NCBI GenBank assembly: GCA_963693365.1
Contig: CAVNZM010000009.1
Location: 7,235,408-7,299,407, forward strand
From: Amoebidium appalachense
Lineage: Eukaryota; Protista; Ichthyosporea
Direction of reading: 5' to 3'
Length of the DNA: 64,000 nucleotides
Shown one piece after another: positions 49,401-52,400 of the stretch (positions are counted from its first letter, which is position 1; the number at the start of each line of letters is the position of its first letter). The notes under the pieces were generated by a model. It had not been told where the DNA came from. It worked only from the letters and a program-made list of their open reading frames with translations, and ran no database searches. Position numbers and translations under genes: made by a program.

Positions 49401-52400
49401 ACACACACACACACACACACACACCGTGCGCGCGTGCCCGCTCCCGTTTATTTCCTCACCTGTGCATGTCTCTTTTTGCTTATCCGTGTCCATGCTTCAT
49501 ACTGCGCACCACGTTTTAAACCCTTCCGCCCCCCTCCCCCCCCCCCGCCTCCCCCCAACACACACATACACATACACAAACCCACACACGTGCACACACA
49601 CAAACACAAACACACACACACACACACACACACACACACACACACACACACACACACACATACACACACACACGCACACAAAGGCCACACATACCACATA
49701 CACACATACACACAATCCCCCCCCCCCCCCCCCCCCCCCCCCCCCCCCCCCTCTCTCCCCTTGTCCTCTTGTCGTGGGATTATACTGTGGGGGGAGGGGG
49801 GGGGGGGGGGAGGGGGGGGGGGATTCCTTTTTCTTTTCTCCCTACCGGCACTGTATGGTCCGCTGTGAATCTGTTGTTCGTAATGTGTGTACTGCGCTCT
49901 ATCCCCCCCCCCCCCCCCCCCCCCCCCCCCCCCCCCCCCCCCCCCCCCACACACACACACACACACACACACACAATCGGCACCGAGAACAAAATGCAGC
50001 GTCGACTTCAAATGTATGTCAATTTTTTCGTAATAAATCAACCAAGCATTCAACACATGTATCTACATCCCCTCCCCCCCCTCAATTCTCCCCCATTTCT
50101 TCTTCTCCTTTCCTACTGTTCATATTGTAATCTAAGGGTGTATCGTGCTTGCATGGATAATAATTTTCTTTTTAATCTTTCTTTTCTTTTCTTTTTCTTT
50201 TTTTTTTTACCCTCCTGCTTACCCCTTTCCTCCCTTTTAAAAAATGCATCGACCGGTCATTATCCCTGCTCCATACCCCCCCCCCCCCCCCCCCTCCCTC
50301 CCTTCCCCCTCTCCCCCCCCCCCACACACACACACACACACACTCACTCACTCACTCACACTCACACTCACACTCACTTACACACACACACACACACACA
50401 CACACACACACACACACACACACACACACACACATCACCACCACCACCACCACCACCACCACCACCACCGCCGCCCCCGCCCCCGCCCCCCACCCCCTTT
50501 TTTTTAATTTTTTTATTGCAGGCGCCGGAGATTATCCTGGGCAAACCATACAATGCAAAGGCAGATGTCTGGTCTATGGGTGAGCATTTCCCCCTGTACC
50601 TCGATCGCCAAACCTACTTGCAATAACAGATTTGACATGCCGTTCTCCCTATCGCAGCCTCCCCCCCCCCCCACCCCCGCCTCCCCCTCTCCCCCCCCCC
50701 CCCCCCCTCTTATCACCTCCCCTTCCCCTCTCCCCCATCACCACCACTACCGCTCTCTTTCCTCCCGTTGTCCTCACGTCCCTTTCCTAGCTAGTTATCT
50801 CTGTCCTCCCCGTGTTGGTGCCGTTGCGTTGAAATGGTTAGGTGGGGAGGGCCAGCACATCAACCGTGTTTAAGGCACAAGTCAACACTCCCACCCCTCC
50901 CACCCCCCCCCTTCCCCCCCTCTCTCTCTCTCTCCCTTTCTCCCTCTCCCTCTCTCTCCTCTCTCTCTCTCTCCCCCCCCCCCCCCCTCTCCCTCTCTCT
51001 TCCCCCCCCCCCTCCCTCTCTCTCCCATCCTGTCTCCCCCAACCCTGCCCCTCTTCCTCTCCCCCCTCCCCCCTCCTGCAATAAAAAAAAAAAAAACATT
51101 TGCCCTTGAATCCCCCCCCCCCTCCCCCCCCCCCCCCCCCCCCCCCCCTCCCTCCATTCCCTCCCCCTCTACCGCTTCACCCCATGCACACACACACACA
51201 CACACACACACACACACACACAGTCCCTGCCCGGCATTGCATGGTCAGTCACATTCCCCTTCATGCTAACTTTTGGCTTTAATGCATGTTTACCCTTTTG
51301 TTTTATTATCTTGTACTGCGATGTGCACCAACATTTCCACTCATCATTTGCACACACCAGCATAGCAACGAGCAAATACCTAACCATTGATCATGAAATT
51401 CACAGGCATCACGGCAATCGAGCTTGCAGACATGTTGCCGCCGTTTGCAGACGTACACCCCATGCGTGTACTTTTCTTCATTCCAAATGGGCCGTCACCG
51501 AAGGTGGGTGGTGTGTGTGGGTGTGCGTGTGTGTGCGTGTGCGTGTGTGCGTGGTTTTTTTTTTTTTTTTTTTTGGGGGGGGGGGGGGGGGGGGTGCATC
51601 TCCGTGCCTTAGTTCATTTTGTTTCTTTTCTAGGGTGAGGCTGGGGAGAGAGGGTGTGGGTGGGTGCAGAGTGGGTGTGTCCGCGGTTTGTTAGTGGGGA
51701 GTGTAGGGATAGTACGGGTACAGTTTCAGACTTGCAGTGAGTGTGTTTATAGCCAACATCACGTGTAAAATCACCCGATCCCCCCCTCCCCCCCCCCCCC
51801 CCCCCCCACCATATTTCCGGCTGACATCCGGGGGCATAGCTTTCCGTTCGAAGACGATAAAGTTCCGCCCTAGTAAGCGTGTTACTACCCTGCGGCGTGG
51901 GTCAAATCTCATATTTTCCCCTCTGATTACGAATTCTGTGGCCTTCGGGACTTAATTCTTTTCAGCTGGTGTAGTATGTTAGCCAGGGAAGTATCGACTT
52001 AGGTATCGACGGGGGAGCTCCTAGAAGCCCCGTCTCCTGAGTTCCTATCTATATTTTTCTTGCTTCTGCTTACTGCTGCAACTTTAACCCCCGGCCTTTC
52101 CCACTGCCCTTGCCTGCATAAGCAACCCTGCTCGTCTCTGATCAAGACGGGTGACCTACTCATGTTCAAGTGAAACAGTATCTGAGTTGGGTTTCGTTAA
52201 CGAGGGGAATAGGTCGAAACTCGGGTACTGTGGATGACGTGGGCCCCCCCTGAGGATGGGCTCTGCTTATTATGCATACTCTTTATGTATGGCTTGCATT
52301 CTGCATCGTGTTATCCGTTTGTTCTTGTGTACTTCGTACTTTTTGACGCATTCAAACCCCCCCCCCCCCCCCCCCCCTCCCCCCCCCCCCTTCCCCTCCC

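Follow-up and report, generated by a model that had tools for sequence, protein, structure and literature searches.

A putative split-core hammerhead ribozyme in a probable Penelope-like repeat of Amoebidium appalachense, with the CUGAGGA strand predicted to be broken between A9 and G10.1

Introduction

The hammerhead ribozyme core has been divided into three blocks, S, G and C, and six permutations are held to be possible because these blocks were assumed to be uninterruptible; type SGC has been validated (Eckert et al. 2023, PMC10085705). Type SGC ribozymes, HRIMA-1 and its variants, cleave at rates of 0.007-0.19 per min, and in known alignments no insertion longer than 1-2 nucleotides (nt) lies beside CUGAnGA (PMC10085705). 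Here we describe a candidate hammerhead in a 64,000-nt stretch of the genome of A. appalachense, an intron-rich eukaryote (contig CAVNZM010000009.1, positions 7,235,408 to 7,299,407, forward strand; the whole stretch is called the window). It lies in a repeat that is probably a non-autonomous Penelope-like retroelement (PLE), and is read as a hammerhead of S-G-C order whose CUGAGGA strand is broken between A9 and G10.1.

The core insertions reported by Perreault et al. 2011 (PMC3088659) are of 1-2 nt only. In PLE hammerheads the G10.1-C11.1 pair is kept and an additional base is tolerated between positions 9 and 10.1 (PMC4209133), and a hammerhead of a Poseidon PLE cleaved only with protein present (PMC11167929). 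For the Naiad and Chlamys elements, which carry an N-terminal endonuclease, no canonical hammerhead was reported; 'HHR_core' and 'HHR_half_core' were flagged in some Naiads without a fold, and Chlamys elements were found to prefer (C)n targets (Craig et al. 2021, PMC8557442). In a 2026 preprint on the retrozymes of animals, Naiad is named only as a clade (10.64898/2026.07.22.740005). In the literature searched, which left most subscription journals outside, no split-core or junction-interrupted hammerhead was described. The term 'type-SGC' was met in one paper only, in the supplement of which the words 'interrupt', 'four-way' and 'junction' do not occur.

Results

Layout of the motif

The motif was analysed in a family A copy of the repeat (51808-52356, plus strand), in a subfamily B copy (minus strand) and in L054, a metagenome contig that carries an independent homolog. 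A first-pass annotation of the window had proposed a permuted, pseudoknotted hammerhead in the 3' part of a retro-element. That location was borne out, and a direct check with recomputed helices found every element it had listed, in A and in B, where it had been placed. The elements of the family A copy, together with three further helices termed P0, P1 and P4, are as follows.

51808-52356, plus strand: family A copy; non-coding, 5'-truncated, (C)n at both flanks, within an intron of a protein-kinase gene of the same orientation
52118-52128, plus: P0 5' strand; 52118-24 pairs with 52264-70, and 52126-28 with 52258-60
52130-52152, plus: P1 hairpin of 8 base pairs (bp) abutting G10.1 (helix computation; a 9-bp counterpart abuts G10.1 in L054)
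52153-52158, plus: stem II 5' strand (G10.1 = 52153), upstream of the cleavage strand (descriptor and helix computation; 12 bp in L054)
52159-52168, plus: P4 5' strand; P4 corresponds to the helix that type SGC has as its stem I-II 'interaction' (helix computation; 52163/52239 is U-G in A and A-U in B)
52169-52174, plus: predicted kink-turn, a 3-nt bulge plus G.A pairs with 52232-52234 (letters read directly; a 5-nt bulge stands there in L054)
52175-52187, plus: stem III 5' strand (U16.1 = 52187); 13 bp with 52219-52231, mean pair probability 0.98
52186-52188, plus: GUU triplet, with the cut predicted 3' of 52188 by analogy to the hammerhead core
52189-52191, plus: stem I strand 3' of the predicted cut; 3 bp in A, 4 in B, 5 in L054
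52194-52203, plus: 10-nt palindrome, family-specific, in the linker that joins the stem I strand to the stem II strand (-15.2 kcal/mol as a self-duplex, -1.4 as a hairpin)
52210-52231, plus: block G, made of the stem II 3' strand (C11.1 = 52215), GAAA 52216-19 (G12 = 52216) and the stem III 3' strand
52235-52243, plus: P4 3' strand (helix computation)
52247-52256, plus: stem I strand and CUGAGGA 52250-56 (C3 = 52250, G8 = 52255, A9 = 52256)
52257-52270, plus: U after A9, then the P0 3' strand; 52258-63 alternatively pairs with 52241-46

Read 5' to 3', the order is P0, P1, stem II strand, P4, kink, stem III, GUU, stem I strand, linker, stem II strand, GAAA, stem III, kink, P4, stem I strand, CUGAGGA, U and the P0 3' strand. 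CUGAnGA, GAAA, an NUH triplet, A15.1-U16.1 and G10.1-C11.1 are all present in A, B and L054, and in each of them helices I, II and III surround the core. Stem III, annotated as 52176-87/52219-30, extends to 13 bp with 52175/52231. Stem I of A pairs GGG 52189-91 with CCC 52247-49. Stem II is built with the upstream strand, as had been proposed: GACCUA 52153-58 forms six Watson-Crick pairs with UAGGUC 52210-15 in A, and the helix has 5 bp in B. Helices III, I and upstream II measure 13, 3 and 6 bp in A. Those of B measure 9, 4 and 5 bp, and its core bases are kept; the claim that B preserves the core is therefore sound, except that its stem I is one pair longer than annotated. A bulge of 3 nt with tandem G.A pairs separates P4 from stem III in both A and B and fits the kink-turn consensus.

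The strand that follows A9 in A offers at most two contiguous canonical pairs to the strand before GAAA, against six for 52153-58, so that A9 indeed has no stem II strand after it. CUGAnGA does not run on, within 0-2 nt, into the 5' strand of stem II, and a canonical stem II would amount to 0-2 bp. The block order is that of type SGC (S 52175-91, G 52210-31, C 52247-56), and P4, a helix linking the outer sides of stems I and II as in type SGC, is found in A, B and L054. An uninterrupted block C is found neither in the window motif nor in L054, and because block C is interrupted the motif falls outside type SGC proper, as a new variant. Thus the earlier statement that the core lies outside types I, II and III holds, whereas its strand order had a precedent in type SGC (Eckert et al. 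2023); the novelty is the break between A9 and G10.1.

Comparison with described hammerheads

Type SGC ribozymes share with the window motif the S-G-C order, stems I and II formed as pseudoknots, and a helix from the 3' side of stem II to the 5' side of stem I, which is P4 (PMC10085705). They differ in that their block C is uninterrupted, whereas here it is split, the 5' end lies before the stem II strand, and P0 and P1 are added. The linker is about 3 nt in type SGC and a palindromic 18 nt here, and P4 of the window motif is continuous with stem III through the kink, unlike in type SGC. Type SGC is known from metatranscriptome RNAs linked to hairpin ribozymes, the window motif from a genomic retroelement.

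PLE hammerheads (Cervera and de la Pena 2014, PMC4209133) resemble the motif in their PLE-type repeat, the base after A9, G10.1-C11.1 and a short stem I. They are of type I, with a short palindromic helix III, and act as dimers, whereas the order here is non-circular, helix III has 13 bp and the one-base insertion has become a junction. The type I order and the palindromic helix III of 1-2 bp of the minimal dimer-type forms are both lacking, and the palindrome of the window motif lies elsewhere. The pseudoknot (PK) hammerhead (PDB 8YDC; Zhan et al. 2024, PMC11300833) is alike in that helix II is supplied from an upstream strand. Its pseudoknot joins the helix II loop with a stem-loop linked to helix I, in a pistol-like connectivity; in the window motif, by contrast, CUGAnGA lies 3' of GAAA and is joined to neither strand of stem II.

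Independent homologs

A pairing descriptor was defined by the order stem II strand, UH, GAAA, CUGAnGA, with the full core, a stem III of at least 6 bp, a stem I of at least 3 bp and an upstream stem II of at least 4 bp. A pattern scan of metagenome contigs gave at least 116 loci (of about 130), each of which was then put through this descriptor. Among the 116 loci listed 115 failed pairing, and L054 alone passed. In prokaryote genomes none of 14 pattern matches passed the descriptor, and viral contigs gave three chance matches to the first pattern, none to the second and no relatives of the reverse transcriptase (RT) described below.

The L054 motif (L054 666-835, minus strand) shows no blastn similarity to the repeat and does not align with it (nhmmer E 0.3). 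It nevertheless contains helices III (14 bp), I (5 bp), upstream II (12 bp), P4 (12 bp), P1 (9 bp) and P0 (7 bp), with 0 bp of canonical stem II. P1 stops on the base before G10.1, and P0 starts directly after A9, its partner bases lying immediately 5' of P1; this placement implies a four-way junction without unpaired linker. The same helices are carried by the window copy (P4 52159-68/52235-43, P1 52130-52, P0 52118-28/52258-70), and on this model the break between A9 and G10.1 is predicted to be closed by the four-way junction. Neither a credible Pfam match (7 frames) nor any match among 154 RT-like proteins was obtained for L054. Downstream of its motif are short TGAA repeats and no recognisable open reading frame (ORF).

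The same order was recognised by eye in four Naiad consensus 3' ends (File S5 of Craig et al. 2021; a subset of 54 Naiads), namely the entry before Naiad_Ovul, Naiad_Ovul, the entry before Naiad_Plae and Naiad_Plae. By eye, all four have G10.1-C11.1, a hairpin abutting G10.1 and an upstream partner strand for the bases that follow A9, P0 being weak in the two entries from octopus. As the two octopus entries are near identical, the four ends represent three independent sequences. P4, P1 and P0 are present in L054 and the Naiad ends, in which the GGGCCC/GGGCUC hairpin (52241-46/52258-63 in A) and the palindrome are absent. L054 and the consensus before Naiad_Plae share all of the seven bases that follow A9, though the helices differ.

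Conservation of the core and of pairing

The descriptor matched five times in the 64-kb window and not once in 60 dinucleotide shuffles of it, made in 2-kb blocks. Two more copies that cover the core (at 35 kb and 56.4 kb) miss it through single stem III mismatches. In a MAFFT alignment of B with A, 1 of 16 core positions differs against 33 of 96 others (Fisher p 0.036); the lone core difference is a gap-placement artefact at G10.1, and counted as 0/16 the comparison gives p 0.003. In Rfam no hammerhead family reached its gathering threshold. On 51800-52400 the lone hammerhead match was a partial one to RF00163 (positions 14-38 of 45; 14.2 bits against a gathering threshold of 34, E 3.6), none was obtained on the subfamily B copy, and no hammerhead stood among the best 150 of 243 rows of a window-wide scan.

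Pair changes on both sides were found at 5 of 49 pairs in six window copies, against 1.2 in shuffles (0/500 shuffles reach the observed value), and sliding the pair partners lowered pairing from 90% to 35-41%; this covariation counts as weak support, since the six are related copies and one of them served to draw the structure. Relatives of the repeat, mostly less than 90% alike, were assembled as contigs from an aquatic metagenome run (X20). One contig covering both sites carries T52157C together with A52211G, a pair of upstream stem II. Among 10 X20 contigs no variant was listed at GUU 52186-88, GAAA 52216-19 or CUGAGGA 52250-56; C52220T and C52249T are present in low-depth contigs. Two X5 contigs end at 52190 and were not counted as evidence.

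The repeat and its copies

In the window 17 copies or fragments of at least 30 nt were found, with scattered 5' ends and two partial tandems. The copies most relevant to the motif are these.

32189-32438, minus strand: subfamily B copy (G10.1 32425, H17 32389, G12 32357, C3 32323), truncated inside P1 and without the P0 5' strand
34958-35225, minus: family A copy with one stem III mismatch
38015-38419, minus: tandem partner copy in which precisely the stem I strand and CUGAGGA are missing and the rest is kept
38457-39006, minus: family A copy, 99.8% identical, with intact motif, extending upstream, in tandem with 38015-38419
54370-54524, plus: old copy, diverged (75%), with its core boxes retained and its helices decayed to G-U pairs
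55900-56497, plus: two tandem family A copies, 55900-56262 intact, 56293-56497 starting at stem II with one stem III mismatch

A C run follows all nine copies that reach the 3' end, and the 5' flank is C-rich in 13 of the 17. The repeat thus shows the 5' truncation, partial tandems (38.0-39.0 kb and 55.9-56.5 kb) and (C)n insertion by which Naiad and Chlamys elements are recognised; the (C)n target is that of Chlamys, and some Naiad ends have the same fold (PMC8557442). Unlike those elements the repeat is non-coding, and we regard it as probably a non-autonomous PLE. The predicted cut site lies 168 nt from its 3' end.

Seven copies lie on the minus strand (32189-39446) and ten on the plus strand (47096-56817), all 17 on the strand that bears the C runs (29-42 kb has 30 G and 7 C runs, 46-57 kb has 26 C and 5 G runs). 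That strand is the sense strand of nearby host exons, plus for the kinase and minus for the CCCH and CHY zinc-finger exons (assumed to be one gene). A (C)n target would therefore place the motif into pre-mRNA.

A second repeat family with (C)n flanks occurs at 54223-54344 (plus), 31531-31642 (minus) and 39192-39266 (minus), and a diverged CUGAnGA block region precedes it at 31640-31668 (nhmmer E 0.03). Judged from its sequence, it may be a distant sister family.

A Chlamys-type reverse transcriptase near the copies

The window also holds a piece of a possible mobiliser.

37023-37616, minus strand: fragment from the C-terminal part of a Chlamys-type Penelope-like ORF, 5'-truncated and lying between C runs

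Its part 37026-37616 is 98% identical to residues 742-938 of P0002, a 938-aa EukProt protein. P0002 has an N-terminal GIY-YIG domain (27-79) without CCHH or CX2-5CxxC zinc-finger cysteines, a CxC motif (CPC 342), a DK motif (DKA 470) and an RT core (PMG 730, YIDD 773), the combination that marks Chlamys elements; no solved relative of it was found by sequence. A family A 3' end lies about 470 nt past the RT stop, behind a C run of its own. A splice-donor-like GGTAAG stands about 350 nt past the stop (near 36678), as in algal Chlamys 3' ends, and beyond it 13 nt match the P1 region of family A.

Discussion

The order of the core, its pairing and its recurrence in sequences that do not align with the repeat argue for an active split-core hammerhead of S-G-C order, broken between A9 and G10.1; from sequence we put the probability of this reading at roughly 0.7, and self-cleavage of the repeat's RNA by the motif is likely. 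Several results pull the other way. Since known insertions are of 1-2 nt at most, a junction at A9|G10.1 has no tested precedent. Stem I of family A has just 3 bp (-2.5 kcal/mol). Folding energy by itself is uninformative, being no better than in shuffles (z -0.27 for A, -0.58 for B); nearest-neighbour ensembles give mean pair probabilities of 0.06 for P4 and 0.18 for inner P0 against 0.20 for the competing hairpin. The fold with P4 and inner P0 and the fold with that hairpin are near equal, at -44.7 vs -43.0 in A and -19.0 vs -19.7 in B. By eye, the motif was not seen in Naiad_Dcar, an incomplete entry, or in any of 12 algal Chlamys ends (last 450-650 nt). In alignments of the repeat with the DNA downstream of the RT fragment, 133 of 300 shuffles did as well; as this intervening DNA aligns no better than shuffles and the 3' end has its own C run, the Chlamys-type RT is named here as a candidate mobiliser.

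Two further results of this kind, that copies start at 52189 in 0 of 17 cases and run through the site in 8 of 17, and that sense copies sit in host introns, where a fast ribozyme would cut the pre-mRNA, together with the low ensemble probability of P4 and P0, are what a hammerhead-shaped fold without appreciable cleavage would produce, whether as a structural signal in the 3' RNA (for RT binding or initiation, for example) or as a decaying relic. The Poseidon hammerhead lends this some weight, its cleavage being unneeded for insertion in vitro and no RNA-seq reads ending at its site in the published account; yet the same hammerhead does cleave once protein is added (PMC11167929). Against a silent fold, C3, G5, G8, G12, A13, A14 and UH are kept across the unalignable window, L054 and Naiad sequences while the helices turn over, and we consider it unlikely. 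That the motif arose by chance assembly of short motifs inside a repeat is hardly credible. Short motifs in free order are common (115 of the 116 metagenome loci listed and all 14 prokaryote matches fail pairing) and the folding z-scores are null, but no shuffle matched the descriptor and seven helices recur independently in L054 and three independent Naiads; L054 by itself largely refutes this explanation.

Two other readings keep a hammerhead and change its wiring. The first-pass annotation has CUGAGGA act while it sits in the loop of hairpin GGGCCC/GGGCUC, with kissing contacts, or a dimer through the palindrome, bringing the core together. The hairpin exists and is as stable as P4 in A and B; the palindrome exists too, in three 10-nt versions (A, B and an X20 relative) whose self-duplexes reach -15 to -18 kcal/mol, and PLE minimal hammerheads work as dimers (PMC4209133). 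The 5' arm of the hairpin competes, however, with P4, the tether of the stem II strand, which it would displace, and its 3' arm with P0. As the homologs keep P4 and P0 while the hairpin is absent from them, it is probably not the active fold; in this family it may be an off-state of the motif. Nor is a dimer needed, since stem III has 13 bp, unlike the short palindromic helix III of dimer-type PLE hammerheads, and L054 and the Naiad ends lack the palindrome. Retained in three versions within the family, the palindrome may serve as a family-specific dimer contact; the hairpin and dimer model as a whole is improbable. In an ordinary type SGC ribozyme, U52257 would be bulged, 52258-64 would pair with the strand before GAAA, and the upstream strand would be a mere competitor. 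Two pairs (G-C and G-U) can form when U52257 is skipped, with a few more beyond a G.G mismatch, and one base between 9 and 10.1 is frequent in PLE hammerheads (PMC4209133). Set against six contiguous upstream pairs in A and five in B, and 0 against 12 in L054, these two pairs have a computed probability of 0.00, and this reading is very improbable. An alternative register of 52189-96 with 52215-22 had a probability of 0.01 and was dropped.

If the split-core hammerhead is correct, stem III and P4 would form one long arm bent at the kink-turn, and the terminal loop of this arm would fold back and make two pairings, stems I and II, with the single strands of the P0-closed junction. Stem II would stack beneath the A9.G12 pair, P0 and P1 taking up the two loose ends, and an ordinary core would be rebuilt with G12 (52216) as the base, the 2'-OH of G8 (52255) as the acid and the cut after U52188. 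Topologically it would be a type SGC ribozyme closed through its 3' and 5' ends and opened again at A9|G10.1. Unit RNAs could be released by such a ribozyme from tandem (pseudo-LTR) transcripts. The cut is bridged by about 38 predicted pairs (III, P4, II and P0), so the products should stay together and re-joining be favoured; this fits the copies that run through the site and the lack of copies that start there, counts that fit a silent motif as well. The hairpin 52241-46/52258-63 is a candidate gate that would keep the ribozyme mostly off, which would account for the tolerance of sense copies in host introns; the presence of these copies in turn favours a slow or gated ribozyme.

A bolder proposal, which we hold tentatively and place a little below even odds, is that the motif represents a seventh natural wiring beyond the six block orders, in which type SGC is reopened within the catalytic strand and the gap closed by a four-way junction; that it is the missing ribozyme of the PLE clade with N-terminal endonuclease, of sufficient age to be common to animal Naiads and the present (C)n-targeting, Chlamys-associated family; and that it works as a clamped cut-and-religate switch which yields circular RNA templates of unit length. 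If true, a break at A9|G10.1 that is natural and conserved would overturn the count of six permutations, and descriptor searches would so far have missed a class. It would also answer the spread of Naiad and Chlamys 'without hammerheads', which is cited in favour of hammerheads being parasites of PLEs (PMC8557442), and a helix junction inside the core would offer a new insertion point for ribozyme switches.

Other features of the window

Pfam, run on 146 of 500 complexity-filtered frames, gave host domains alone and missed the RT fragment. The following exons were assigned from it.

1719-2015, plus strand: Ostalpha transporter exon
16438-16728, minus: alpha/beta hydrolase exon
20424-26023, plus: Trm5/TYW2 tRNA methyltransferase exons
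28935-29153, minus: CHY zinc finger exon
44018-44332, plus: PLAC8 exon

The 869-aa ORF at 39493-42102 was considered as an RT and rejected, being a host CCCH zinc-finger exon; a search with its last 90 aa found no homolog. Local tandem repeats have a unit of about 48 nt near 15.8 kb (15.7-16.0 kb) and of 70-80 nt at 30121-30485, and an 83-nt duplication lies at the end of the window (63828-64000).

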